Origin: Eledone cirrhosa
Taxonomy: Eukaryota
Direction of reading: 5' to 3'
DNA: 64,000 nt
Assembly (NCBI GenBank): GCA_964016885.1
Contig: OZ024741.1
Span: forward strand, 162,378,001 to 162,442,000
The notes beneath the pieces are model-generated. The model had not been told where the DNA came from, did not search any database, and saw only the letters and a list, made by a program, of their open reading frames with translations. The position numbers were made by a program, and so were the translations under genes. Each line of letters starts with the position of its first letter. Position 1 is the first letter of the stretch. Positions 5,450 to 58,746 of the stretch are shown here, in pieces.

Positions 5450-6485
5450 TGTCATCATGGCTTGGCTTCGTGAATGAAGATTAAGAATGGAGTGGTTCAC
5501 ATTAGCTGTAGGCACACTCATGACAGTTTAGGCCAATGTAGGACAGACAGACATGGTTGCAGCAGCTACAACTGAAGGTCTGGTCAGGGTTTGATGACGT
5601 AGTGTGGCAGTACTTCCTCCTGCACCTTTTTTCAATTCAGTCTCGCTAATGGAGATATGGGAAGGGTGGTATTCTTCCCGAGGTGCGGGCCAGTGGAATA
5701 CTGACTTCTAGCCAAAGGATCTTGGCAGTCCCTGTGAAGCAGGAAGTGATGCGCTGCAAGGCTCTTTCCATGAAGGCAACTAGAGCAGCATCATTGGCAC
5801 AGGGGAGGTTTCGGATTTGTTGCTCCAGTCTTTGTGTGGGCCTGTAGTTGGTGAAGATTAAACTGGTTGCCATCAAGACAGTATCTAATGTAAACTCCGT
5901 CCCCTTCAAGATCTTTTGTGGCCTGCTTGAGCATCATGTTGAAGATGGTGTTGGCGCAGGGACACATTTACACCATTAATGATCGAGAAGGGCTCTGAAA
6001 AGTTACTTCTGAGTCTGACTTGGTCACGCTGGTCTTCATGCAGCTGGATGACCATGTTCAGGAACTTTTGGGGACAGCTGAGACGTTTCATGATCTGCCA
6101 CATTCCTTTTCTGCTCAATGTGTCGAATGCTTTAGACAAGTCAACGAACACTACATAGAACACTTTATTTTGCTCCTGGCACTTCTCTTGGAGCTGCCTG
6201 AGAAAAACACCATGTCTGTGAGGCTCCTGTTGACTCTGAAGTTGCACTAGCCCTCTGAGAGGTTTTCTCCAGTGGTATCAGTCTGTTCAGCAGAATCCTT
6301 ACAAGGATTTTTCCTGCAATAGAGGGTATAGCAATCTCCCAGTAATTTAAGTAGTCTGACTTCTCCCCTTTGTTCTTGTACAGTGATGATGACTGCATCG
6401 CAGAGATTTTGTGGGAGATTGACCTGCTCCCAGCAACAGACAAAGAGCTCATGGATTTTTGCATGAAACACTGGGCCTCCCTACT
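5450..6485 (-). mobile_element. RTE/BovB-like LINE fragment (RT with internal deletions, 3' end)
   Basis: SIAGKILVRILLNRL, LRQLQEKCQEQNK..VFVDLSKAFDT, LPCANDAALVA; 3' end tcttcattcacgaagccaagccatgatg. Confidence 0.85.
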
Positions 6486-9400
6486 TTTAAATCTTAAATG
6501 ACTAGTGCTAAACTTAACTATTAAAATACTATGCAGAATTAAAAAAGCAAACCAACATGAATAACACTTGCAGTAAAAATTAATTGTTTCTACTTTAGGC
6601 ACAAGGCCAGCAATTACCCAGTGCATTACTGGTACTTTATTTTATCAACCCCGAAAGGATGAAAGGCAAAGTCAACCTCGGCGGGATTTGAACTCAGATC
6701 GTAAAGGGACGTAACTATGCTAGAAAGCATGGCGTCCGACACTCTACCGATACTGCCAATCCACTTGCAGTAAAAATTAATGATGCTGACTTGAAATATA
6801 TTAGCGTCATTCATAATGTGTATATTATGAATAATACTATGTTAGTGCTACTACTAATTAATCCTAGCTAGTCAAGCCTGCACTATATGAAAATGAGCAT
6901 CTTCATTAGGTGTAAAAAAGTATAAAAGTATAAAAAAGTATAAAAGCTATAACCTATTCTTGTCTCAGTGCAGATGATGGATAAAAATCCTGAAACACTT
7001 GTGTCTAGCATTCTCACACAGTTACTGAGATAGCTGTGACATGATCACTGCTTAAAACATCTTCTTTCGAAGGCAGAAGCATGTAATTTGGCTGCTATAT
7101 CTAACTTGAGGTCTTGTGTTCGCAGCATCATTACGTATGTTTATCATACAACCCATGCTAGCATGGAAAATGGATGTTAAACGAAGATAATGATGAAACA
7201 TATTGTATATTCGTTCTATCATCTTATTCCTAGGAGGGTCATGGGGCAGAGTCCTCATATACACCTGCCAGTGGGTTTTATAAGAAGCAATTGTCTCCAA
7301 TTGATGGCTGGATCCCAAAGTAAGACCAGCCAAGCTCATGCATTTTATCCAACCATTTTGCCAGTTGGTTTTGCTTATAAAATCTCTCCAGTGATTCTTT
7401 CCTTAGACAATTCTGACATGTCCATAGTATCAGAGCTGTGATCTCCCAATTCAGAGAAGCAGTGGCTCTACTTAAAGCGAATCCCTCATCCCCGAGCTAC
7501 ACGCACTCTATCGAGCAACATTATTCCATAGACCCTACGAAGGAACCCCATTTCAGCTGCTAGTATTCTTTCGGTCATTACTCAAGATTCAAGACCATAG
7601 GCAAAGGTTGATATGAATACAGAATTGAAGATAGCAATTTTGGCTTTTACATCTACCTCCTTTCTTCTGATGACCAATTACTGCACTTGCAATTCTTACA
7701 CTTAATTCAGTTTATTATACATCTCTATTAACTCTAATATTGGATGCTAGCAATGTACACCATGCTAGACAGTGGGCAGCAAGTTCTTAAACTACAATGT
7801 AATAATTGTTTCTATGTTAGGCACAAAGCCAGCAATTACCCAGTGCATTACTGGTACTTTATTTTATCGACCCCTTAAGGATGAAAGGCAATGTAATAAT
7901 ATTTTCAAATCAGTCACTCCTACTTTTCCTTAGTATGAATTCACCAGAAGAGAAAAAGCTACATCAATCAATGATGTATGAGATTAATTTAGATTGAACT
8001 TCTGTTGGTTATATGGACTCATAACTCCCGATAGAGTCATAAGGGTGTCTCATGACTCCATCACTCTCCAGGTTTGAACAAGGCCAATTTCTGCCAGATG
8101 CTGATGTCAATATAAAAAAATATATGGTGAGGTAATAGCAGAATACCTGTAAAAAAATGTTTAGTTTGGGATGCAAGTGGTGAGACAGGATAATGTAGGA
8201 TAAAAAATAACAAGTACCATTGGATGGAAGTAGTCACAAGAATAGTGGACTGTTGTAGTGATAGAAAAGGCACAGAGAAGAACAAAATGCACCTGTGACT
8301 AAGTTATTGCACCATCTTGATAACTGAACATTTGTTGACCAGCCAACCATAATGACACTCCCAGATAAGTGATCAATGCTCTATTGATGATTTAGGATTA
8401 GCTTTGTAGAAAGCCAGCAATTGGTCAAAGATGAAGTATTTTCTGTTCTCTAAAAATCCTAGTCTTTCTGATACGGTTTTGACAATGTTATATATGTCAA
8501 CACTGTTTACACTCTCTGTCATGTTTAACTTAAAAAAACAAAGCCAAAGCAGAGTAGAGAGAATATTTTACCCTTGCAGGGAACAAAGCAGACTAGAATT
8601 AATGCTACTATAAAATGTACCCAGTAAGCTCTGTAATGTGGTTTGTATCAGGAAGGGTGCTCTACCAGAGAAACCATGGCAAAACAGATTCCATGAGTGA
8701 GATGTAGTCTTTCAGTATATCTAGCAACTCCGAATCGGAGATGACTTTGACCAAGAGAACCCATGCCAATATCTAAAACAGATACAAATCAATTGATAAT
8801 GACCTCACTATAGGTTACCGAGTTTTATTTGCATTATTCATGTGTAATGATTGTCTATTGGGGATGCTGTTGAAGGAGATGTCATTTAAGTTGACATTGA
8901 AGGATGCTATCATAGAAGCATTTAAGTGTAGTGTGAGCTAACTAGATTGTATGATGTAGCAGTTTAAGAATGAACATCTGTGTAAGAAAGTATTTGGTTA
9001 GAAATCACATCATTATCATTAACCCTTTAGCATTTACATTACACTATATTTACTATTGTATTTTCATGGTAAAGGCTTTACCTCACATAATATCGAATCT
9101 ATGAGATTTTGATATTATTTTAAGAACACCTCAATATCAGTATGAACAGAAAGAGGTGAGAAAATTCTGGCTAGATACGGCCGGTTTAAATGCTGAAGGA
9201 TTAATGCTAAAAGTTATAGCATAAAGTAATGATGTACAGAAAGAACATGAAGATATTAATGAATTTAGAAATGTATCACAGTTAAGAGAGACTCATCAGT
9301 ATACATGGTCATGGAGTAGACTGACAGGAAAATTGATCAGTATGTCAGCATCCCATGGATATAATGATAGTATATAGCCATAACTTAACTAGGATGGTCT

Positions 9401-10372
9401 CACTCCAGAAATAATCTAGTGGCAATAGCGAAAACATTGTTTCTTTTTTTACAAATGTACTCAGAAGCAAGGAACCATTGGGAAAGAGTTTCAAGGTGAT
9501 GAAATAAATCCTTTAAGACTGTCTTCATCACCTTTGAGATGGTAAACACACTCAACTAAGATACAATACAATATGATTGAACTCAATACTTCTAGATTGC
9601 AAAGTGAGCTTTCTAACCACTTACTTACCTTTAAAATGTAAACATTTGCTGTGATTAGTAAATATTTGTTTCTCCGTTTGGCACAAGGCCAGCAATTACC
9701 CAGTGCATTACTGGTACTTTATTTTATCGACCCCGTAAGGATGAAAGGCAAAGTTAACCTCGGCGGAATTTGAACTCAGAATGGCAAGGGTCGTAACGTC
9801 AAATATGGCGTCCGACCCTCTACCAATACTGCCAATCCACCGCTGTGATTAGTAAATATTGTACAAAAAATATATGTGACTTCACCCTAAATAAATTTCA
9901 CAACTGAAGAATTGCTGTTTTGACTAAGCTGTATTTACAAATGCTCTTCTACATACACTGCTTATATTTTCAGGATAATCATCTTATGAGATGTAAAATA
10001 CCATCACACAAATTATTTTTGTACACTTAATAGAGCTCCATTAGCTGGAGTGTCTGATGCAGCAGATATCACTGAGATATACTGCCTAGACAAGAGTGTA
10101 GAGCTTGCCCCTAGCCTTCCCCTTATTTTCATTAATATTTTCTTTCTTACTGTGTGTTTATTTGCAACTGTAAAAGCTGTTCCATAAATATTAGTTACAG
10201 AAGCTTACATCTCATTAATTTTCTGACAGTACATAAGGAGAATAACTCTTGTACAATATTTCAGTGTAGTCACCCTTGGCAATAATTTTTTTCTCTTTAA
10301 AATATTTTTTTGATCTTGCAGCCCTATAATCAAAAGCGTCTTTTTTCTTTTTTAATATAACTATAGAACCAA

Positions 10373-18340: not shown

Positions 18341-18805
18341 AAATTAAACCATATCATCTTTTAAATAATCTCAAAGAACACATTGAGTAATATTCTTAAT
18401 ACCTGAAAAAATAAAAAAGACAATACAGTTGTATGAAAGGCCTTTGATCATAAGCCTGCTTCATTATAGTAACCAAGGGCGGTGGATTAGCAGTATCGGT
18501 AGAGAGTCGGAAGCCATGCTTTGCAGCAAAGAGTTACGGCTCTTTATGGTCTGAGTTCAAATCCCGCTAGGTTAATTTTGCCTTTCATCCTTACGAGGTC
18601 GATAAAATAAAGTACCAGTAATGTACTAGAATAGTTGCTGGCCTTGTGCCAAAAATAGAAACAATTATATTAACCTTCGTATAGGGTGCACGATGACAGA
18701 GTGACGAATATGAAATCTTTTATTTACAGTTGTAAAAAATATAATATAATTGTTTCTACTTTTGGCACAAGGCCAGCAATTACCCAGTGCAATATAATGC
18801 TTACA

Positions 18806-19052: not shown

Positions 19053-21721
19053 AAATCCCACCGAGGTTAACTTTGCCTTTCAGGGGTCGATAAAATAAAG
19101 CACCAGTAATGCACTGGGGTAATTGCTGGCCTTGTGTCAAAAGTAGAAACAGTTATATTGTTACGTATAATGCTGTTGTCAGCAAGCATTTCCAGAGCTG
19201 CTTGAGGCGAGTAACCGTTTTAATTTCATGTCTTAACAAAAGAATGGTGTGACGGAGAGGTAGATGCGATTGAACAGCTAAAGGTATTTGGTATTCTTGT
19301 TTCCTAGCCGACCCGGGCGAACTCACTGTATTACTATTAATTGTTTCTACTTTAGGCACAAGGCCAGCAATTACCCAGTGCATTACTGGTACTTTATTTT
19401 ATCGACCCCGTAAGGATGAAAGGCAAAGTCAACCTCGGCGGGATTTGAACTCAGACCGTAAAGGGACGTAACTATGCTGGAAAGCATGGCGTCCGTCCCT
19501 CTACCGATACTGCCAATCCATTACTATTAATGCGTAGGTTTTATAGCAGCAGGAACATTGTAAAATAAACGAATATTACTTGATTAAATGCCTGGCCTTA
19601 ATTTAGCTTCAGCGCTCTACATTTTCAAATTTAAATACGAATAGGCTACTTTGCTGGTGCCGGTAAAATAGACAAACATACTTTTTATGCTTATTTTACC
19701 GGTCCCCAATAAATATCAATAGTAGTAGATTTAAATTGTCTTAATAATTGGTGGTGAAAATAAATAAAATTCTGTGTTAAATCTGTGTTGTTTTTTTTAA
19801 CATTTCCTGCTTTCATAATAATTGTTTCTACTTTTGGTACAAGGCCAGCAATTATTCCAGTGCATTACTGGTACTTTATTTTATCGACCCCGTAAAGATG
19901 AAAGGCAAAGTTAACCTCGGCAGGATTTGAACTCAGAACGTAAAGGGTTGTAACTTTATGCTGCAAAGTATGGCGCTCGACCCTCTACCGATAATAATGC
20001 CCTAGAAACATCGTATGTCGATATAGCGCCCCTACAACTCCTCCCTAAATTACGGGGATCTGCAAGCATTGTGAATCCTATCAACTCTGATTTAGGCACA
20101 AGGCCAACAATTTTGGGAGATGGGAAAGTCGATCAAATCGACCCCAGTGCATTACTGGTGCTTTATTTTATTGACCCCGTAAGGATGAAAGGCAAAGCCA
20201 GCCTCAGCGGGATTTGAACTTAGACCGTAATGGGTCGCAACTCTAAGATGCAAAGCATGGTGTCTGATACACTTACCGGAAAAATAGCCTGGGGTTCATT
20301 TTACCAGCACCGGCAAAATAGCCTCTTCCATTTAAATACTGCCTGATTCACTTTGCCTTTCAACTCTTCGAGGTCGATGAAATAAATAATGTACCAGAAT
20401 CCATTTAATCGACTGATACAGGTGTCTCCCAGACCTTTTCAAGCAAAAGTCTATGGTTGGGTATTCAAACGAATCTTCTTAAGATGAGATAAGGGACTAA
20501 ATGTCAATAGTCAAAACATTTGAGGAGTTGCAACTAAGGGTATTTTCAAAGTCACCGTAATCGACATGAGTATAAGGTGATATCAAAAGAAGAAAAAAGA
20601 CCGACAATGCACAGGCTCACAATTCAGGAGCGAGCAATAACGTTTAATTCTCTTAACATATAGTGTGAAACTTATTTAGTGTTACAACTAGTGATACTTA
20701 TTTAGTGTTACTACTAGTGTTTGAGGTTGGCCTGCTGCCTTCTTTCCGTGGTCGCTGTCCAAGACCTCCGAACTGTCGTTTTTCTCCTCAAAATTGGGAG
20801 GAGTGCATTCCGCGAGGTTGTGTAGATGATGCAGCGGGTTTCGCTGGCTGTTTTTCGCGGCAATACTTTCGCCATCTTGTCCACGGGACGCAGCTGAGAT
20901 ATATTACCTTGACTAGGGTGTAGAGTCTACCCCTTTTCCCCTTTTGTTCATGATTTTCTTCTTCTTTCTACCTGTTTATTATGGAAAATAGTTATGTAAA
21001 TAAAACTGTGATCTCTTCCTACGTTTACATTTAAAAAAAAAACTGACTCACTTTATCTGATTTCTATCGGAAGTTACAATCAAACCTAATACTTTCTCGA
21101 TAGTTAAACAAACATACAAATGCTTATGCACGATGAGAGCTATTTAGAAAACGCGTAAATCCTCAACACAGAACAATATTAAAACTTCATAAGGAATGTT
21201 TACCTCCCAGAAATTCCTGTAATATCTCAATGACGCTATTCGTTCATAAACAAATATTTTAAAATACTAAATTATACACTCTTCTTTTTGAAATGATACG
21301 TTGGAGAAACCAGATACGTTTTTTTTTTTTAATTGTTATATATTTTCAAAATAACATCCACAACGCTGCTAAAACTTTCGAACAAAAGTTTTATTTCATG
21401 AACATGTTGGGTGGATGTTTCCATACTTCTATAGTGTGAAATATTTGAATGTAATGTAAAGGCCCTTAACTCCTAATGAAGTTTTAGGGAGACCACCGTG
21501 TTTTGAGCATCTTAAACCCGGGGGAGCCCTAAGTCGTGACACAACCGATGTCGAACAGAGAAAGAAAGAGAGGGAGAAAGTAATAAAGAGAGATAAGGGG
21601 AGAATCGACACCAGAACCGGACTGGTATTTTATTCATCGACCTCGAAAGGATGAAAGGCCAAGTTGGGATTTGAGCACAGTGCAAATTGGTCTGGAACAA
21701 ATACCGAGGCCTTATTGGATT

Positions 21722-22273
21722 GGCGGTGGATTGGCAGTATTGGTAGAGTGTCGGATGCCATGCTTTGGCGCATAGAGTTACGGCCCTTGCCATTCTGAGT
21801 TCAAATCCCGCCGAGGTTAACTTTGCCTTTCATCCTTACGGGGTCGATAACATAAAGTACCAGTAATACACTGGGTAATTGCTGGCCTTGTGTCTAACGT
21901 AGAAACAATTATTGGATTGGCAGTGTCAGTAGAGAGTCGGACGCCATGCTTTCCAGCATAGTTATGTCCCTTTACGGTCTGAGTTCAAATCCCGCCGAGG
22001 TTAACTTTGCCTTTTATCCTTACGGGGTCGATAAAATAAAGTACCAGTAATGTACTAGGTATTTGCTGGCCTTGTGCCAAAAGTAGAAACAATTATTGGA
22101 TTGGCAGTATCAGTAGAGGGTCGGACACCATGCTTTGACGCATAGAGTTACGGCCCTTGTCATTCTCAGTTCAAATCCCGCCTGGCCTTTCATCCTTACG
22201 GGGTCGATAAAATAAAGTAGCAGTAATGCACTGGGTAATTGCTGGCCTTGTGCCAAAAAGTAGAAACAATTAT
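21722..22273 (+). mobile_element. Three head-to-tail copies of a tRNA-derived Meta/MESC-domain SINE (~190 bp, (ATT)n tail)
   Basis: A box TGGCAGTATTGG, B box GAGTTCAAATCC, Meta-like aactttgcctttcatccttacggggtcgataaaataaagtacc. Many dispersed copies, e.g. ~6580-6762(-), 9665-9843(-), 18477-18668(+), 19338-19520(-), 19816-19992(-), 20088-20278(-), 22963-23138(-), 29835-30047(+), 35240-35432(-), 35892-36032(+), 41068-41175(-), 49890-50105(-). Confidence 0.9.
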
Positions 22274-23883
22274 TAACCCAAGGTCCTAACGATTCTGCCA
22301 ATTCGCTGCCTTCTTAGATAGATTGGTTGTCTTTCGTTGCTAAATATTCTTGTGAAAAGAATCTAATTTTCCATTGCCTTTTTAGCGAACCACTGGTTAA
22401 TTTTATGGTATTGCCATTACCTATACCATCTATGACCTATTTAGAAGTAGTTAGATCCGGCTGTGAATACAGCTGAGTAGTGGTGATACGATGTGAATCG
22501 ATAGTCACTTGCTCTCTATTTATATTGCATTGTTTAACTTTACATACACAATGAAGTTAAAACTGATCAAATCAAAAAAGTTTTTGGAAGCAAGAGTTAC
22601 TTCCCTTTAAAAAAATTTATAATGAGATTTTTTACTCATACAATGTAATGAAGTATCTAGTCTAGCTCCAGACGTAACTTTTATTCAACAGTTTTAGCAG
22701 CAGTATTGCAAATCCTGGGGTGACGAATTGCCAGAGTCGCTAGAGCGTCGGATAAAATGCTTTACGGTATTCGTTTCGGCACTCTGTGTTCAAATCTCGC
22801 CGAGGTCAACTTTTCCTTTCATCCTTTCGAGGTCGATAAAAAAAGTATCAGTCAAGAACGGGGGTCTATTTTTCCTCGATATCTCTTTCTTACTTCCATT
22901 CCTTCACTCTCTACCCAAATCTGCTGTATTCAGACTTGGAGAGGGATAGAACCCGCCAGGATTAATAATTGTTTCTACTTTTGGCACAAGGCCAGCAATT
23001 ATCCTAGTGCATTACTGGTATTTTATTTTATTGACCTCGTAAGGATGAAAGGTAAAGTTAACCTGGGCGGGATTTGAACCCATACCATAAAGGGCCGTAA
23101 CTCTTTGTTGCAAAGTATGGCGTCCGACCCTCTACCGATAATAATGCCCTAGAAACATCGTATGTCGATATAGCGCCCCTCCAACTCCTCCCTAAATTAC
23201 GGGGTCATGCAAGCATTGTGAATCGTATTAACATAATTAATAAAAAATAAAAAAATAAAAAAAAATATTTGATTCGAAAAAAATTGTTGAATTGATATTA
23301 AACTATTGCAATTTTCAATAAAACAAAGAATTAAAATTCCTATCTCTCTCATCGATTTCTGTTTGGAAATGTACCACTAGCGAAAATAATCATTGATTTG
23401 ATCATTTATCCATTGGTCAGCCTTAATGAAGCGGACCAACAATCAAAGCATTCTGGCGGTGACCAGTTCGTCTTTTTAGGGGAATTTATAGGACTACATT
23501 ACGTAATGTGTTATTTTTATGCTTGATACGGTAGGGAGTGATTTAAAGGAACCAAGTATTTATTTCGAGCAGGTCGTAGGCAACGGGCGGCGAATTTGTA
23601 GAGTCGTTAGAACGTCGGATAGAACACTTCGCGGTATTTATTTCGGCACTTTGTGATCTGAGTTCATATCTAGCCAAGGGAAAATTTTCCTTTCATTCTT
23701 TCCAGGCCGATAAATAATCTGCTAATTCGTTACTTTATGTCGAGAGTAGATACTATATTATATGAGACTGTTATTTATGATTAACTAAGATCCTGTCAAG
23801 ACGAGGAATTACGCTTAAATTCAGAGCTAAACATCAGATCCCAGGGTTAAAGACGCATTCATGTTTACACACACACACACACA

Positions 23884-26360: not shown

Positions 26361-26614
26361 AAAAGTTTTAGAAGTAAACTCCAGGGCCCCTTCTGTGGTG
26401 TGTAGGTCTCCACCGATTTTTTAGTAGAGTGTGTGTGTGTATGGCAATATATATATATATATAAGGGAATAGGATTTCGCTTCAAGCATGGCTTATACAA
26501 TATGTATAGACATTTCGTATTTCGAAAGGAATACGATTTTAGGAAGCCGTAGCTATGCGAACACCGGCGGGGCTAACACCCTCTGGTGTTGTCCAGCAGA
26601 AGCAAGGGGGACAA

Positions 26615-26656
26615 CCGTCTATGCATTTCAGGCTTGACTGGCCATCATCAGGACGA
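26615..26656 (-). ncRNA. Minimal type I hammerhead ribozyme
   Basis: Minus strand: UCGUC-CUGAUGA-U-GGC cagucaa GCC-U-GAAA-UGCA-UA^GACGG. Stem I UCGUC/GACGG; palindromic AUGCAU as helix III. Confidence 0.8.
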
Positions 26657-26827
26657 TCCCTCCCACTGCTCTGCAACTGCTGGACTTCAAAACAGCCGAG
26701 AACAAATAATTTTCTCGTCTGTGTAAATGAGGTGATTAATCTCATTTGCATATGAAGCTGCATAAGTTGGCTCAACTTATAATAGAAAAGAAATAGGATT
26801 TCGTTTCAAGAATAGCTTTATACAATA

Positions 26828-27603
26828 CTAGCAGTAAAGCCCGGCGTTGCTCGGGGTCGCTCAGTAGCTGTGTTAAAGTTACAATGTTAAGTTTCTTTTT
26901 TGGCTTAAAAACTGTAATGTCTACTGTGCAGACTTGCATGTGGTGTTTTTGATTAATATTCCCTCAACCAACAATATGCCTTATGAAGTTAAGAAAACAT
27001 AACGATAACCAGAATGTTATAACAAAAGAGGATGCTGGGGATAAAAACTGCACTGGTTATTTATTAACAAAGATCGAAAATGTAAACACTGCAACGCAGA
27101 GAAAAACATTAGCGTAACCAAATTATCAGTTGTCTGTCTGCACGCCTATATCACCTCTCTGCACGACTGTCTGTCTGCACGCCTGAAATATTTGCTTGTT
27201 TTAAATAGACTTGTTTTCAAGTAAAAATATTGTTTTAAAATGCTTTTAAATGGAAATGAAGCAAAACGGAAGCTTAGTGTTCGAACTGATGAATTTTGCA
27301 GGTCAATATTTTGCTGGCTCGACAACTGTTCGTTGAGAAAGCCAGCGTAATTTTTTACGTAAGACGCTCAATGTAAACAGAACAAAGGGAAATAACTGAT
27401 AACTTACGCTCAAAAATCGATACATTATATTCGATTTCGTCACATAGGGTGGGTCAATTTGAAATATTTTTTTTTCCGATGTCTTCGCTAGGGCTCAATG
27501 TACAAGTATAGCAATTTCGGTGCAATTCCGTGAGAGATTCTAAGAGGAGATGTGTGCCAAAAATCGATAGACAGACAGACAACCACAGTTTTATATATAT
27601 AGA
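26828..27603 (-). mobile_element. Non-autonomous Helitron (776 bp)
   Basis: Minus strand starts TC and ends CTAG; subterminal hairpin CCCGGCGTTGCTCGGG; (GACA)n. Inserted between A and T with no TSD, and the empty site is preserved in the paralogous repeat (acaata|tgtataga, ~26497-26510). Confidence 0.9.
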
Positions 27604-28459
27604 TGTATAGAAATTTCGTATTTCGAAAGAAATACGATTTTAGGAAGCCGTAGCTATGCGAACACCGGGGGGTTCACGCATTTTTTTTTTGTCCCGTACA
27701 ACTTTTGCATATTAATTACATAGACCCTCTCAGTTAACCGAAGATTTTCACCTCACAATATTATATATGTGAAACCCTAAAATCTCACAGATAACATTAA
27801 GCTAAATAAATAATGTAATATACATTTATATTTTTAATATAAAGAGTGGTGTGCTCATGCGCGGATATGCTATAAAATAGGGTGAAGACCCTTAAAGACG
27901 ACCACTACTAGGAATCGAACTCTGTATCTCCCAGGTATCATACATATATCATAAACACACACACTATATATGTGTGTGTGTGTGTTTGTATGCATACATA
28001 CATGAATATATATATATATATGAAGACAGGAGATTGATAACATGAAAAATAATCTCTTTTCTTCGTATTAATTTGTGTATCTATACTCAGTTAACTACCA
28101 ACTATAGTCTCATATCATCTATGGAACGGTACTTTTCACTTTGCATAATGTATATAGATTACACCCGGATTAATTATGTATTATGGGGCAAATGACACAC
28201 ATTACATTAATAGTTTGAACGAAGAGAAATATATATACATATTATAAATTAGTCTGAAACTAGCTGTTGAAACGCAAGAGCTCAGCTGTCGGGTCCCGAC
28301 TCTTTATAATATAACAATACTCTACTACTCTACAAGTATCGAGTACTATGTTGAGTAATGGTCTAACCAGTTTCAAACTGAATCCATCCAGTTTATATAT
28401 ATATATCGACCTGCAGTATTTGTTGTTATTCATAATCAGTATGACTACATTTTCTTAGT

Positions 28460-28503
<44 letters not shown>

Positions 28504-29037
28504 TTCAAGAGTAACCAATCTTAAAGAGAGAGATGGAGATAGGAGAGAAGAGAGATTGGTGAATTAGTTAGAAGCCAAAGCGTAAAGGCATGTGTGAGAT
28601 CTGCCTCTGGGTAACAAGATGGCTGCCAATCTTGTTACTCATAGGCAGATCTCACACAATGCAGCCTCGACAGAAGAATACTGCTCGACTATGGCAGACA
28701 ATAGATATACCCAGGATACCATAGTGAAATACCAATATATGGAACATTACATTCATGTAACATTCTTTCCTTATTTTAATTTATATTCCTTTTGAAGTTC
28801 CGATGAGCTGCTCTAATTTTACCTAAGTTAATTATTTTCAACTGAACCAGATCAATAATGATCTATAATCATTTGATCCAGAAATATTATATGGAGTAGC
28901 GAAATAATTGTAAACGGACATTATTATTATTATTCTCTACATTCCTTACATCAAATTAAAATATGTTGACAATCTTTTAATAATGTCTTCCTTGTGAAAT
29001 TTGTGGTCTTGTTTTGCTTAACTAATGTATATATATA

Positions 29038-29346
29038 TATATCAACTAGAAATAGATTGACACATATATATATAAAATAAACACATGAAACAATCTCAGG
29101 GAATAATTTGTAAAGTGTGTAAGCACACATAGCTAGGTATGTAACTAATTAAAGTTGAACTAGAACTTCAAATATAGATACCTTTTAAAATGATTAAAAG
29201 GTATCTATATTTGAAGTTCTAGTTAAACTTTAATTAGTTACGTACCTAGCTATGTGTGCTTAAACACTTTACAAATTATTCCCCGAGATTGTTTCATGTG
29301 TTTATTTTATATATATATATGTGTCAATCTATTTCTAGTTGATATA
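29038..29346. repeat. Near-perfect ~310-bp palindrome (foldback)
   Basis: ~150-bp arms with few mismatches around a 5-nt loop (29189-29193). Confidence 0.95.
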
Positions 29347-33630: not shown

Positions 33631-36612
33631 AGTCCTATATGAGCGAGACACGGTTACCCGACCAACCTTGCCTCGAGTGGGACAACTCCCGTCTAAGCCA
33701 TGCTAGCGTGGAAGATGGATGTTAAACGATGATGATGATGATTATACAAAAACAGTGGTGCTCTTTGTAAACATGAGAAAATATTCCAACGAAAAATTCT
33801 AAATTGCAAGATTTGATAAGGCACTTGTTCACTAATTAATTAATTAATCAATCAATCAGTCATCATTCGTTGTTAAAATGAATTTTAGCTTTTTCTTTAT
33901 TATTTTCAAATATCGAATTAAATTATAGTTTAGTTTAATTTTATTTTATTTCATGTTGTTTAGAAATGGAATGGACATCCATAGGTTTCAATGATGAGTT
34001 TCATGTTATTCAGTCAATGGAACAACCTGTTCATTAAATTAACATGGCTGAGCCTTTAACAGAAATATGTATCCTTAACACTTTAGCATTTACATTACTT
34101 TATATATACTATTGTATTTTTGCGGTAAAGGCTTTATCTTACATAATTAACTCACATAATATCGAATCTATGAGATTTTGATGTTATTTATTTTGAGAAC
34201 CATACTTTAATGTCAGTATGAGTGGCCAGTTACAGCTGGCTTGAACAGAAAGAGGTGAAAGAATTCTGGCTGGATTCGGCTGGTTTAAGTGCATTACTGG
34301 TGCTTTATTTTATCGATCCTGTAAGGATAAAAGGCAATGCTAACCTTGGTGGGATTTGAACTCAGAACTTAAAGGGCCAAATAATATCAATAGTAGAATA
34401 GAAGAGAAGAGATATATAGATGATGTGAGGGCAAAGAAAAAAAAAAACCCAAAAGAGAATTAATGTTTTGCTGCAACAGGAGACATTTTGTGTAGATTTA
34501 AGGTGTATCTGTTGCTGGGCCTTCGTCATTTCTGAGGATGAATGTTCCAGCTGATTTCACCAATAGCGCAGCCTACCCATGAATTTAAAGTGCAAGTGGT
34601 CGAGAATTCCACTGGCATGTATACCTTTAATGTAGTTCTCAGGTAGATTCAGTGTGACACAGAATGTGACAAGGCTGGTTCTTTGAATTACAGGTCATGT
34701 TTTCCAGCTGAGTGTACTGGAGCAAAGTGAAATATAGTGTATTGCTCATGCTGCTGGGAATCAAACTCATGACGTTATGATTGTGACCTAAACACTAAGC
34801 TATGCATCATCACAAACAAGATAATAAACCTGATTCACTTAGACATTTGATTATAACTTATCTTGAAGGATTCAAACACAGAAACATGAAGAACTGAACC
34901 AAGTTTTCTTCTCTGGCACAGTATTGACAGTGGGAAGACATGTGGCCAAGTGGTTAAGGTGTTGTACTAACAATTATAATGTCATGGGCTCAATTCCTGG
35001 ACTGTGTGTTGTGTTGTGTTCTTGAGCCAATACTTTCACATTGCTCCAGTACACTCAGATAAAAAAATAGTACAATCAGTAGCTGGGGATTAGCCCTGCA
35101 ATGGACTGATGTTCTGTCCAAGAAGGATTTTTGTACTCTCAGTTGCTTAACTCCAATGTAACTGGGATAATCAGCTTGATGAACCCCTGATGTTGGAACA
35201 GACTTTAACCTTGCAATGTACTGGCATTCTATTCCAAATAATAATGTTTCTACTTTTGGCACAAGGCCAGCAATCACCCCAGTGCATTACTGGTGCTTCA
35301 TTTTATCAACCTCGTAAGGATGAAAGGCAAAGTTAACCTGGCGGGATTTGAATTCAGAATGTAAAGGGTTATAACTCCTCTCTTGCAAAGCATGGTGTCT
35401 GACACTCTACCGATACTGTCAAACCTCCGCCCTACTCCAAATAATAATGATGATGATTTCTATCAAAGGTACAATGCTACAAATTTTCAGAGGATGGGTT
35501 AATTAATGACTCTGGTACTTTATTTTATTGACCTTGAAAAGTTGAAAAGGTAAAAATCAACCTCACCAGAATTTGACACAGAACATAAAGAGACATAACT
35601 AAATGTCTGTTGCTCTACCCATTCTACCAATTGAAAGTCTTAATAATAATAATAATGGTTTCTGATTTAGGCACAAGGCCAACAATTCTGGGGGAGGGGA
35701 AAGTCGATTAAATTGACTCCAGTGCATTATTGGTACTTTATTTTATCAACGCTGTATGGATGAAAGGCAAAGCTAACCTCAATGGAATTTGAACGCAGAA
35801 CAAAGGGCCATAACTATATGCCACAATGCATGTTGTCCGGTACTAACAATACTGCCAATTCAGCATCCTAATCATTATTATTATTATTCACAGTTACGTC
35901 CCTTTACAAACCGAGTTCAAATCCCGCCGAGGTTAACTTTGCCTTTCATCCTTACGGGGTCGATAAAATAAAGTACCAGTAATGCACTGGGTAATTGCTG
36001 GCCTTGTGCCAAAAGTAGAAACAATTATTATTATTACTGCCAATCCACTGCCCCATAATAATAATAATAATAATAATTATCATTGTGAATCTACAAAGAG
36101 TTATTGGTGAAGAGTGGTCTGTTTGAAAGTTGAAGGAAAAGTAATTTGAGATTCATGGACAGGGTTTAAGGTAAGGTATGGCTAATGTATGAAACTTATA
36201 TTAATGTGCTATACATATAGTAGTTACATATATGTCCACAACAGTTCTAGATAAGGAAGTAAATGGCATTCACAACACCTGTAGTTTTGTATTTAACAGC
36301 TTATACCAATGTAATCTACAACAACTTAAGATCTTTATGTAGCAGTATATGTTACAACATTCAAAGGTATGTTATCATTGTGTTGTTTACAAAAGCATCA
36401 AAACTGCTACTTCATGTTGTCTACAATAACACCACCCAGTGCATTCTGCAATTGATGGCACTGGAATGAAAAAATGTACCCAGTAAATCGGTTTAGTGGT
36501 TGTCACCAGGAAGGGCATCTAGCTGTAGAAACCATGCCAAACTGGAACATATAAGCAAGTTGTAGTCATCCGACATGCCTAGTCTCAGCATGGAAAGCAT
36601 ATCAAACAGTGA

Positions 36613-37630: not shown

Positions 37631-37955
37631 TCAACTCGTGTGTTACATTTCTACACTTGTTATATACACACACACACTACTTAGATATTGAATTCTCTAA
37701 CAAAAGTAACCATCCCTAGTATTATATATCATAATGGGACCACCAAGTTCCATACTGTCAATGTGGTTGGAGTTAGGAAGGGCATCCAGCTGTAAAAAAT
37801 TGACCATAATACAGTTCCGGTTGAGCAAGGTACAATGTGGCCAAAAGGCCAGACTTGCCTCATAGTTTCCGTCAAATGGGTTGTCCACGCTAAGACATTA
37901 AGAGATGATGATAAGAGATGTCAACATGAATGGACTTATTATTTTTATCTAAAGA

Positions 37956-38134
37956 CATTTTTTCCAATTCCATCTCATCCGTCCCCTTAATCTATTTTAT
38001 TTCTCATTCTTTCTTCTGATGAAGAAGTAGTGTCCGAAACGTTAAGACCCTCTTCCTGCTATATCAAGCGTTAACCTAATATATTCCTTCCATATACTGT
38101 ACTGATTGTGCTGTTATTTCTGTTTACCTTTTAC
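37956..38134 (+). mobile_element. ~180-bp (TA)n-associated element with a minimal hammerhead (38012-38047); copies at 58747-58926 (-) and truncated at 23925-24003 (-)
   Basis: TCTT-CTGATGA-a-g(a)a(g)TAGTGTCC-GAAACGTT^AAGA. The other copy reads TCTT-CTGATGA-a-GGACTAG(cgca)C-GAAACGTT^AAGA. Confidence 0.75.
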
Positions 38135-38450
38135 ATATATATATATATGAAAAAATGGTGTGCTGCGTGGTTGCAAATGGGTTACATATGAATAAATTTA
38201 GTCCTTCATCAGTGATCTTCCAACCTTCATTGGTATTTCATCGCTTTAAAGACCATATACCTCTGGTTGGTGCGAGTAACGGCTAAAGAAAGTCGTTGGG
38301 ACAAGTAAATAAGGGGAACGAGCGAGACAGTAAACAATCAAAGATGGTAATGCAATGAAAAGTGAGGAAGAAGGAGTCAAGTCCCTGAAATCGATGAAGG
38401 ACTGTGATCACTGATGAAGGACTGTGATCACTGATGAAGGACTAAATTTA

Positions 38451-50837: not shown

Positions 50838-51790
50838 ATAGTATAAGGAATGTTACAAAACACCATATAAGGTATGAGATAGAACACTGTATAATATGAT
50901 AATACACCATATAAGGAATGTGGTAGAACACCATATAAGGTAAGTGTTAGAAGAAGGTAAGTGATAGAACAGAGTATAATGTGATAACACACCATATAGG
51001 GAATGTTACAAAACACCATATAAGGAATGTGAGAGAACACTGTATAATGTGATAACATACCATATAAGGAATGTGAGAGAACACTGTATAATGTGATAAC
51101 ATACCATATAAGGAATGTGAGAGAACACTGTATAATGTGATAACATACCATATAAGGAATGTGAGAGAACACTGTATAATGTGATAACATACCATATAAG
51201 GAATGTGAGAGAACACTATATAATGTGATAACATACCATATAAGGAATGTGAGAGAACTCTGTATAATGTGATAACATTCCATATAAGGAATGTGAGAGA
51301 ATGCTGCATAATGTGATAACATACCATAAAAGGAATGTTACAGAACACTGTATAATGTGATAACATACCATATAAGGAATGTCACAGAACACTGTATAAT
51401 GTGATCACATACCATATAAGGAATGTGAGAGAACTCTGTATAATGTGATAACACTCCATATAAGGAATGTGAGAGAATGCTGCATAATGTGATAACATAC
51501 CATATAAGGGAATGTTACAGAACACTATATAATGTGATAACATACCATATAAGGAATGTTACAGAACACTGTATAATGTGATAACATACCATATAAGGAA
51601 TGTCACAAAACACTGTATAATGTGATCACATACCATATAAGGAATGTTACAGAACACTGTATAATGTGATAACATACCATATAAGGAATGTGAGAAAACG
51701 CTGTATAATGTGGTAACATACCATATAAGGGAATGTTACAGAACACTGTATAATGTAATAACATACCATATAAGGAGTGTGAGAGAACAC
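50838..51790. repeat. 44-bp minisatellite (~21 units)
   Basis: Unit AACACTGTATAATGTGATAACATACCATATAAGGAATGTGAGAG, with degenerate edges. Confidence 0.95.
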
Positions 51791-55415: not shown

Positions 55416-55899
55416 TTGACATATCGACCCTGGACTCCAAAAATGAAATATGTTCAATGCTAATGCTGTCATTATTAATGGCACTAATCCTCTAGTTTTA
55501 TAGAGAGAGGATACATTCCTAACTCTTACTGATAATCAGGACAGTACAAACTAGTCATTAAATATTTTAGTTCCACCCAGCCACTCTCATCTACTGCAGG
55601 ACAATGTTTCAGCAACAACACTGTTTTTAGCAAAACAGTGCATAATAAATACAATTTATGCACAGATTACAGATGTATACTTGTTCATGTAGTTTACAAT
55701 AGAAGAGAATAACAGAACTAGAACCTGGTTTAAGTTACTATCTTAGTAACGAAATAATCAATAATTTTAGAAAGCCCCACCAAATTCTTCATTAATTAAA
55801 TGAAATACTATGTATTTCATTAGAAATAAACTAGTGAAGAAAGTTAAGTAAACAGAAGAGTATTGAACCAGGTGGTTTTCTCTAAATCACAAGGCAGAA

Positions 55900-57425
55900 G
55901 TGGTAGTGCTGGTACCACAATAAGATGCATTCAGTACACTCTGTAACGTGGTAGTGCTGGTACCACAATAAGATGTACCCAGTAAAACTCTATAAAGTGG
56001 TAGTGCTGGTACCACAATAAGATGTACCCAGTAAAACTCTATAAAGTGGTAGTGCTGGTACCACAATAAGATGTACCCAGTAAAACTCTATAAAGTGGTA
56101 GTGCTGGTACCACAATAAGATGTACCCAGTAAAACTCTATAAAGTGGTAGTGCTGGTACCACAATAAGATGTACCCAGTAAAACTCTATAAAGTGGTAGT
56201 GCTGGTACCACAATAAGATGTACCCAGTAAAACTCTATAAAGTGGTAGTGCTGGTACCACAATAAGATGTACCCAGTAAAACTCTATAAAGTGGTAGTGC
56301 TGGTACCACAATAAGATGTACCCAGTAAAACTCTATAAAGTGGTAGTGCTGGTACCACAATAAGATGTACCCAGTAAAACTCTATAAAGTGGTAGTGCTG
56401 GTACCACAATAAGATGTACCCAGTAAAACTCTATAAAGTGGTAGTGCTGGTACCACAATAAGATGTACCCAGTAAAACTCTATAAAGTGGTAGTGCTGGT
56501 ACCACAATAAGATGTACCCAGTAAAACTCTATAAAGTGGTAGTGCTGGTACCACAATAAGATGTACCCAGTAAAACTCTATAAAGTGGTAGTGCTGGTAC
56601 CACAATAAGATGTACCCAGTAAAACTCTATAAAGTGGTAGTGCTGGTACCACAATAAGATGTACCCAGTAAAACTCTATAAAGTGGTAGTGCTGGTACCA
56701 CAATAAGATGTACCCAGTAAAACTCTATAAAGTGGTAGTGCTGGTACCACAATAAGATGTACCCAGTAAAACTCTAAAGTGGTAGTGCTGGTACCACAAT
56801 AAGATGTACCCAGTAAAACTCTATAAAGTGGTAGTGCTGGTACCACAATAAGATGTACCCAGTAAAACTCTATAAAGTGGTAGTGCTGGTACCACAATAA
56901 GATGTACCCAGTAAAACTCTATAAAGTGGTAGTGCTGGTACCACAATAAGATGTACCCAGTAAAACTCTATAAAGTGGTAGTGCTGGTACCACAATAAGA
57001 TGTACCCAGTAAAACTCTATAAAGTGGTAGTGCTGGTACCACAATAAGATGTACCCAGTAAAACTCTATAAAGTGGTAGTGCTGGTACCACAATAAGATG
57101 TACCCAGTAAAACTCTATAAAGTGGTAGTGCTGGTACCACAATAAGATGTACCCAGTAAAACTCTATAAAGTGGTAGTGCTGGTACCACAATAAGATGCA
57201 CTCAGTACACTCTGTAAAGTGGCAATGCTGGTGTCACAATAAGATGCACACAATACATTCTATAAAGTGGTAGTGCTGGTACAACAATAAGATGCATTCA
57301 GTACACTCTGTAACGTGGCAATGCTGGTGTCACAATAAGATGCACACAATACATTCTATAAAGTGGTAGTGCTTGTGTCACAATAAAATGCATTCAGTAC
57401 ACTCTGTAAAATGGAAGTGCTGGTG
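55900..57425. repeat. 49-bp minisatellite (~31 units, ~25 essentially identical) derived from a SINE body
   Basis: Unit GTGGTAGTGCTGGTACCACAATAAGATGTACCCAGTAAAACTCTATAAA; runs into SINE sequence aagtggttaacattaggaagggcatccagc. Confidence 0.97.
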
Positions 57426-58746
57426 CCATGAGCAAGCGCTCCCAGTGCACATTGCAAAAAGTGGTTAACATTAGGAAGGGCATCCAGCCATAGAACCTTT
57501 GCCAAAATATGGAATATATAAGAAAGACATGTTTCTCTGAACCATCTAGTTTTTGAACTGCAGAGGTCCATGCTGGCATCGAAAGCGGACATAAAATAAT
57601 TGTTTCTACGGTTGGCACACGGCCAGCAATTACCCAGGGCATAAAATAATGATGACGATGAACATACGCTTCCATAAATTAGAAGTATTAGTTACAAAAC
57701 AGAAGTTTCAGAAGTATTAGTTACAAAACAGTAAAACCGAAAAGTTAGCAAGTGCTTTTAAATAAATCACATTATAAGGTCTAAGCAAAAATTAAAAGAA
57801 TTATACAAGAAAAAAAAAATGAACAAGCAAAATAAAGAGCATTTGTCTATCTGCTGATGTGTGTTTATGTGGGTGAAGTAAAACAAGGACTTATGAATGA
57901 ATTCTTGATACATACAGTTCAAATCTGAATACAATTTATAAGACAAGTATAAAGAAAGAAAAAAGAACAAGCGACTTAGTTTTTTTATCTTTCTGTAATG
58001 TTTATTTAAAACCCTTTTGATACAAAACTGTGTTTTTATTTATCTAAGAACTCCTCATCGTAATTATATGTAAATACCTGTGTTATGTTATGTTCCAAAT
58101 GCAAACGTATTTAATACTAAATACTGCAAAATTCTTGAAAATGATTTAAAACTCATAGGCTATGTCTTTCATTAGAAATATGCTAATGAAAGGGTTAAAG
58201 AGCAAAAGAAAATATCAAAACATTGAGAAACCAAATATTGTAGACAATAGATATGGCAGTAAAGTTGATTATTGTATAAACAAATTAAGTCCAACAATGA
58301 AATATAAACAAAAGCCTGGTGACAAGAATCGAAGTGGGAATTAACCTTTTGGTACCAAACCTACCCCAAACCACCTCTGGTTCTATGAAATAAAACAACT
58401 TATTCACAGGGTTCCTATTTAAATAAAAGTCTTCCAAACATAAGGACCTTTTGATATGTTAAAAATACATCTTAATAATGAAATAATAATTTTACAAAGT
58501 CCTTCCAAATTTTACATTCAAATACATAGTATTTTATTAGAAATATACTAACAAAGAGTTTAAGTAACATAAAATAACATACAAACGATTTGAATTCAAT
58601 CCCACTGTATAGTACCTTGGGCAAGTCTACTACAACCTCAGGTTGACCAATGCCTTGTGAGTGAAATTATATAGATGGAAACTGTGTGGAAGCCTGTTGT
58701 GTATATGTGTGTGAGTGTATATATATATATATATATATACATATAT

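Follow-up and report, generated by a model that had tools for sequence, protein, structure and literature searches.

Animal retrozymes are known from coral, mussel and axolotl (PMC7229834) and from many vertebrates, and further related literature is found in PMC6765202, PMC2837043 and PMC6155905. The canonical animal hammerhead has a helix I of 6 bp, a helix II of 4 bp and a helix III of 1-2 bp with a small palindromic loop (PMC4209133), whereas the minimal hammerhead of Penelope-like elements has a bulge after A9 and a G10.1-C11.1 pair directly before GAAA (PMC4209133, PMC8557442). Xenopus retrozymes derive from Penelope terminal repeats, and 8 of 9 predicted Xenopus dimers did not cleave; the samples of that study (Li, Clavereau and Pollet 2026), as described in its text, include no mollusc (bioRxiv 10.64898/2026.07.22.740005). 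A search for a cephalopod report of the retrozyme, hammerhead and Penelope kind found none, subscription papers, repeat libraries and supplements being places that may hold one under another name; the word ribozyme is absent from the 2026 O. vulgaris repeat paper (PMC13282606). A preliminary description of the present locus had called its family possibly uncharacterised in the lineage; the class itself is well described in animals, including mussel (PMC7229834). The class, dimeric cleavage and the Penelope link are already in print, and what would be new here is the lineage, i.e. cephalopods, and the test case that it provides.

The window, i.e. the whole stretch of DNA analysed, is 64,000 nucleotides long, and on the identity of its NIP7 exon (94% with Argonauta hians, at most 85% with the other 47 matches) the host is an octopod. 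Between NIP7 and a G-alpha exon lies an insert (Table 1) that is a dispersed 1.33-unit copy of a multi-copy octopod repeat family with a type I hammerhead motif. It is likely to be a non-LTR retrozyme brought here by a reverse transcriptase of the Penelope-like kind, and this copy has probably lost its activity. The hammerhead points the same way as the genes on either side, which suggested a regulatory role in the host; nothing supports such a role for a motif 8.3 kb upstream of the NIP7 start codon, nor on the other side, 13.8 kb past the G-alpha stop, and no host function of the 324-bp unit is indicated. The window also holds probable miniature inverted-repeat elements at 29060-29322 (129-nt arms, 96%, 5-nt spacer) and 28591-28658 (30-nt arms, 93%), and minisatellites at 55898-57428 (49-bp unit, 31 copies, 95%) and 51015-51790 (44-bp unit, 18 copies, 91%). 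An abundant repeat of ~185 bp that resembles a SINE family is dispersed at 6581-6764, 9661-9843, 18483-18668, 19335-19520, 35238-35425 and other places, and occurs once as a three-unit tandem at 21727-22274.

Table 1. Features of the insert and its surroundings (window coordinates).
Feature	Position	Strand	Basis
NIP7, five coding exons	18189-2090	minus	
G-alpha subunit exon, codes for C-terminal half	41131-40445	minus	
(TA)8 microsatellite adjoining insert 3' end; likely target site	26447..26463		
One full period of repeat unit, 324 bp, non-coding	26463..26786	minus	repeat comparison, multi-copy in runs
Terminal direct repeat, downstream copy (insert 3' end)	26463..26571	minus	
Terminal direct repeat, upstream copy, one side of Helitron	26787..26827	minus	
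Terminal direct repeat, upstream copy, other side of Helitron; insert 5' end at 27672	27604..27672	minus	
Helitron of 776 bp, non-autonomous, with TC...CTAG ends, between A and T	26828..27603	minus	
Type I hammerhead motif, predicted cleavage 26620/26619	26613..26658	minus	
Predicted long helix I extension with internal loops, closing the hammerhead domain	26591..26685	minus	prediction
Octamer ATGCAAAT, possible promoter element, ~95 nt upstream of core	26744..26751	minus	
Second-family copy	37955-38148	plus	
Second-family copy	58926-58733	minus	
Second-family copy	24002-23892	minus	

The two copies of the terminal direct repeat are about 109 bp long, are set one period of 324 apart, and differ by 7 substitutions and 2 indels. 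The period of 324 bp and the total of ~1.3 units next to (TA)n, after removal of the Helitron, were correctly read in the preliminary description (1.33 units, (TA)8); its start at 26468 has to be revised, the element starting at 26463. The insert contains one hammerhead, lying outside the repeated part, the unit has a GC fraction of 0.444, and no second copy of it occurs in the 64-kb window. No target-site duplication was found, only T-rich matches of 6-7 nt away from the insert ends; a microsatellite target can hide such a duplication. The longest stop-free stretch of the unit, 88 codons, has no Pfam match, and neither a tRNA gene nor, on the hammerhead strand, a pol III A or B box is present. 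The linkage to a Penelope GIY-YIG frame that had been envisaged is absent from the window, where 0 of 62 stop-free frames of at least 85 aa match GIY-YIG; the one RVT_1 match, at 5909-6277, is 20 kb away from the unit.

Eight public sequencing runs were candidates for holding related copies, and five of these, from two organisms, contained the stretch or part of it. No RNA run is among those listed as containing it, which has no bearing on expression. Four, designated X1, X4, X5 and X6, were compared at 80% identity; X5 is from organism B, and X1, which contains the exact left flank, may be the source sample, X4, X5 and X6 being more independent. Summed depth in X1 is 6,400-167,000 per bin across the unit as against 15 and 1.6 in the flanks, and X6 gives 206-635 reads per bin across the unit as against 0 in the outermost flank bins. 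The unit is thus not single-copy in either organism: in X1 and X6 every part of it is multi-copy, in X4 and X5 all or most of it, and the ratio of unit to unique flank suggests hundreds to thousands of copies, summed contig depth not being a copy number. Beyond 27672 depth drops to the single-copy level, and loose ends at 26463 are dominated by microsatellite reads. Other copies bridge 26571/26572 (X1 records 2-4) and 26786/26787 (X1 record 7 and, in organism B, X5 record 19), and the empty-site joint of the Helitron (26825-27603) is present in four contigs of X1 and one of X4; since all three links occur in other copies, the 324-nt period closes on itself. Two X4 contigs hold inner parts of the unit only (26593-26759 and 26676-26776), so that the ends of the unit are not fixed. 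No tandem dimer or multimer was seen, there being one hammerhead here and at most 237 nt of the unit in the contig pieces listed, and pattern scans for related copies gave 0 matches in metagenome contigs, prokaryote genomes and viral contigs.

The 776-bp element within the upstream repeat copy has TC/CTAG ends on the minus strand and lies between A and T, the signature of a Helitron. It is a later insertion into the second-lap repeat, because only one of the two repeat copies contains it and other members of the family lack it. The Helitron has high depth in all four runs and is non-autonomous; internal 37-bp repeats at 27131-27184 vary in number between its copies, and its common form skips 26909-27158.

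On the minus strand the motif has a helix I with its 5' arm at 26658-26652 and 3' arm at 26619-26613, the core CUGAUGA at 26651-26645 followed by U26644, a helix II of GGC (26643-26641) and GCC (26633-26631) with a 7-nt loop, U26630 preceding GAAA (26629-26626), and the palindrome AUGCAU (26626-26621), with A26620 as H17. Helix III amounts to 1 bp capped by the palindromic tetraloop UGCA, and helix I to 6-7 bp; with majority bases there are 6 Watson-Crick pairs and then an internal loop. The core, GGC/GCC and palindrome given in the preliminary description were confirmed, and its predicted cleavage position, which would lie after A26620, is unchanged; the AUA triplet at the cut site occurs in natural hammerheads (PMC1636495). 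Stem II was given as GGC/GCC, which holds but overlooks a U·U mismatch at positions 10.1/11.1 (U26644, U26630), so that helix II has 3 bp plus U·U in this copy and would have 4 bp with the majority A at 10.1.

That the motif might resemble a hammerhead by chance, or be an old relic that was never catalytic in this family, is extremely improbable. A hammerhead scan of both strands of the 64 kb with a descriptor, the search proposed earlier, gave two matches, this motif and one at +38016, against a mean of 0.03 matches of any kind in 100 block-wise doublet shuffles, and 0 of 100 shuffles gave a 4-nt palindromic loop with a helix I of at least 5 bp; the motif is beyond chance. Rfam hammerhead models, the other arm of that search, matched nothing in the window (E 1) and, even at E 10, nothing in the unit, which speaks for a look-alike, as do the U·U closure of a helix II of only 3 bp in this copy and an unconstrained best fold that mispairs part of the core. 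Against it stand the shuffles and also the variants listed from other copies, which improve or preserve helices and spare the core, as detailed below.

Predicted pair probabilities are 0.89-0.99 for helix I and 0.66-0.67 for helix II. The 324-nt circular monomer of the hammerhead strand is more stable than every one of 100 shuffles (z -2.9), and a fold constrained to contain the hammerhead costs 1.4 kcal/mol above the minimum; since the plus-strand circle reaches z -6.3 and, of 25 other 324-nt stretches of the window, two score z -2.9 or below, folding gives weak support. In a nested dimer model the energy is -21.0 kcal/mol before and -24.3 after a helix III of 6 bp is formed between the two molecules (monomers -8.8 each), and the lowest-energy two-strand fold is a non-hammerhead duplex at -31.3 versus -24.3 for the hammerhead dimer.

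Variation among copies bears on whether the ribozyme has been under selection. Of 180 variant rows, unphased, 40 are listed, and six of these fall within the 47-nt motif. U26644>A (minus strand; 427 of 454 X6 reads, 13,682 of 19,412 depth in X1) makes an A10.1-U11.1 pair with U26630 and hence a 4-bp helix II, and U26656>C (400 of 445) turns a U·G into a C-G pair. G26642>A with C26632>U swaps a G-C for an A-U pair in helix II; in X4 each change has 53.6 of 55.6 depth, in two contigs, and X6 has the same swap (217 of 454 and 166 of 565 reads, respectively), while in one contig of X5 (depth 8.8) 26642 seems to be changed and 26632 not. C26636>U is the helix II loop variant among those listed, and U26647>C (204 of 444) falls on N7, which is free and is the one place in the core for which a variant is listed. 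Of the 6 motif variants listed, 0 hit the other core positions or helix III (16 positions in all), with a probability of 0.07 by chance alone. Among the 40 of 180 variants listed, no change in the catalytic core except at the free N7 thus appears, in line with the conservation anticipated earlier; minority core changes may be present in the rest. These variants, in which pairs are improved or preserved and the core is spared, point to selection on RNA structure. The reads of X6 have just 12-16 different start points within the motif, so that a few loci dominate its counts. A listed variant at 26663 would break a pair in the predicted helix I extension unless its partner also changes. The U at 26644 is kept in the X4 contigs and in part of X5, and on this sequence evidence the U·U is to be seen as the mark of a subfamily and not only as decay of this copy. 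The stretch 26710-26786, which holds the octamer, had 0 of 27 listed variants (chance 0.001); this was not taken as conservation, single contigs (X4 record 12 and X5 record 19) differing in ~15% of letters there and the listed variants being a minority.

The hammerhead had been assigned to the minimal Penelope type; by the definitions of PMC4209133 the motif instead fits the canonical metazoan type I of retrozymes, and it has none of the Penelope minimal features (bulge after A9, G10.1-C11.1, short helix I). This assignment bears on a reading in which an autonomous Penelope-like element is the origin of the insert, which would then be a piece of its pseudo-LTR or 3' end, 5'-truncated and with a short internal partial tandem, and not a member of a free-standing family. 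The partial-tandem layout, the 3' (TA)n and the palindromic helix III are Penelope features, Xenopus retrozymes and Penelope terminal repeats are homologous (bioRxiv 10.64898/2026.07.22.740005), and an exit into a Penelope ORF may lie among 814 loose ends beyond those listed. A Penelope fragment is nevertheless unlikely: the period closes on itself in other copies of both organisms, the 88 codons without Pfam match are all that the unit has as an ORF, and two marks of the minimal type, the bulge and a G10.1-C11.1 pair next to GAAA, are missing from the motif but present in the second hammerhead family of the window. The best reading remains a non-autonomous hammerhead retroelement family, as had been proposed, one that is multi-copy and has no core change among the variants listed.

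The second family is a short repeat with three copies that are 89-90% alike, each with (TA)n at its 3' end. In two of these there is a minimal hammerhead of Penelope type, its core at +38016 and -58865, respectively, with a bulged A after the core, a G-C closing pair, a loopless ACGU helix III and a 4-bp helix I; helix II is decayed in these hammerheads, and the third copy is without one. The copies are likely 5'-truncated Penelope 3' ends, and similarity between them and the 324-bp unit is confined to the core heptamer. At 38393-38443 (plus strand), just before (AT)20, a 20-bp unit repeated 2.5 times contains CTGATGA and the start of the second-family helix II, and appears to be what slippage has left of that hammerhead's 5' half.

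The geometry of the 324-bp family member suggests how it arose. The 3' end of the insert lies 157 nt past the predicted cleavage site, which is crossed once; since the insert crosses it, a cleaved linear monomer is excluded as template, and a circle or an uncleaved multimer fits. Three rare bases are common to both repeat copies: at 26536/27637 the other base is found in 271 of 278 and 101 of 106 X6 reads, at 26559/27660 in 242 of 321 and 80 of 86, and at 26524/27625 in 212 of 257 and 88 of 121. The repeat copies are on this account from one template or one subfamily, and a subfamily or a local duplication of DNA would explain the shared bases just as well. Taken at the sequence level, the layout suggests that reverse transcription went round 1.33 times, on an RNA that was either circular or an uncleaved multimer. 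The 5' end corresponds to the position equivalent to 26571, just 3' of a predicted hairpin and long stem (26575-26685) at which the polymerase might stall. The Jukes-Cantor distance between the repeat copies (0.07) corresponds to about 10 million years at the octopus calibration of PMC13282606, a rough figure that depends on 7 differences.

It is quite improbable that the family is a hammerhead satellite or minisatellite spread as DNA by unequal exchange, extrachromosomal circles or Helitron capture, with no RNA intermediate here. A DNA circle or array segment would likewise leave 1.33 units, circularly permuted and with the rare bases in common, neither a target-site duplication nor a poly(A) tail was found, and a Helitron is present in the locus. 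Capture of the unit by that Helitron is ruled out by its later arrival; the 3' end of the hammerhead strand adjoins (TA)n as in retrotransposed Penelope-type inserts, 3 of 3 window copies of the second hammerhead family also end at (TA)n, and the pair-preserving changes point to selection on RNA.

For copying through RNA the enzyme is likely Penelope-like, because O. vulgaris carries 31 Penelope-like families with recent activity (PMC13282606), Hydra, Naiad and octopus Naiad elements insert into (TA)n (PMC8557442), and Xenopus retrozymes have the derivation noted above; cephalopod Naiads are described as long inactive (PMC8557442). In the mechanism proposed, the hammerhead strand of source loci with at least two units would be transcribed, perhaps from a promoter within the unit, and two hammerheads would pair through their AUGCAU palindromes to form helix III and cut after UA, releasing 324-nt monomers. 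A host ligase, as suggested by the mussel, coral and axolotl work, would close the monomer to a circle. A Penelope-like reverse transcriptase/endonuclease would then nick (TA)n and prime cDNA 157 nt downstream of the cleavage site, cross that site, finish one lap and stop 109 nt into the second, just before the ribozyme domain. The sequence itself shows that the Helitron entered the second-lap repeat later and that the repeat copies are now ~7% different. A dimer within its own transcript is impossible for this locus, which has one hammerhead only, and because of the single hammerhead and the Helitron in its repeat it is probably a dead copy.

Compared with metazoan non-LTR retrozymes, the unit is likewise non-coding, within the 150-450 bp range, below 50% GC and present in many copies, with a canonical type I hammerhead, a predicted self-paired circle and an accessible ribozyme fold (PMC7229834). 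By sequence it thus has the hammerhead type, size, GC, copy number and predicted circle fold of a retrozyme. In that class a target-site duplication, where there is one, exceeds 4 bp, and a primer binding site and polypurine tract are lacking. Those elements form arrays and circular RNA, whereas this locus has 1.33 units and one hammerhead; and the tested invertebrate retrozymes cleave well as monomers (PMC7229834), whereas helix III of the unit is of the weak kind. The axolotl HHR_Amex1 and HHR_Amex2 and newt satellite 2 have similar units of ~330 nt (PMC7229834, PMC6155905). Amex1 has the same 1-bp helix III with palindromic tetraloop and cleaves better as a dimer, and Amex2 shares the U·U at the base of helix II with this copy and the X4 and X5 contigs (PMC7229834). 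This likeness is one of described features; the amphibian elements form large arrays, and the host here is a cephalopod. Among the non-autonomous Penelope derivatives of Xenopus, for which Penelope-like mobilisation is proposed, the unit resembles the dispersed 'monomer' class (bioRxiv 10.64898/2026.07.22.740005); for their 'active' class Li, Clavereau and Pollet 2026 require two hammerhead units, both complete, and this locus has one. Penelope-like elements with minimal hammerheads share the partial tandem, the palindromic helix III region and the 3' (TA)n (PMC4209133, PMC8557442). They differ in having an RT/GIY-YIG ORF and a minimal hammerhead in both terminal repeats, whereas the unit has no ORF and a canonical hammerhead outside the repeat.

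The snRNA-type promoter of newt satellite 2 includes an octamer, and the octamer ATGCAAAT of the unit, a possible promoter element noticed after the fact, is expected ~0.011 times in 324 nt of one strand; the window as a whole has 6 versus 4.5 expected. Newt satellite 2 is transcribed from that promoter, which is internal to it (PMC2220036). A wider reading, which we regard as doubtful, is that octopods with an undescribed retrozyme family have converged on the amphibian satellite 2 design, i.e. a ~330-nt unit with a dimer-dependent hammerhead and its own snRNA-type promoter, and that its dispersed copies preserve the trace of a circular RNA that was reverse-transcribed into (TA)n by a target-primed, rolling-circle process.

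If the retrozyme assignment is true, animal retrozymes extend to cephalopods. The geometry of the insert, with its 157 nt, single crossing of the cleavage site, 1.33 laps and shared rare bases, is the trace that would be expected of reverse transcription of a circle, and a family this large offers many junctions at which integration may be examined. Should the reading as an undescribed family also hold, the ends of its copies across the genome would directly test an integration step that has so far only been hypothesised for animal retrozymes.
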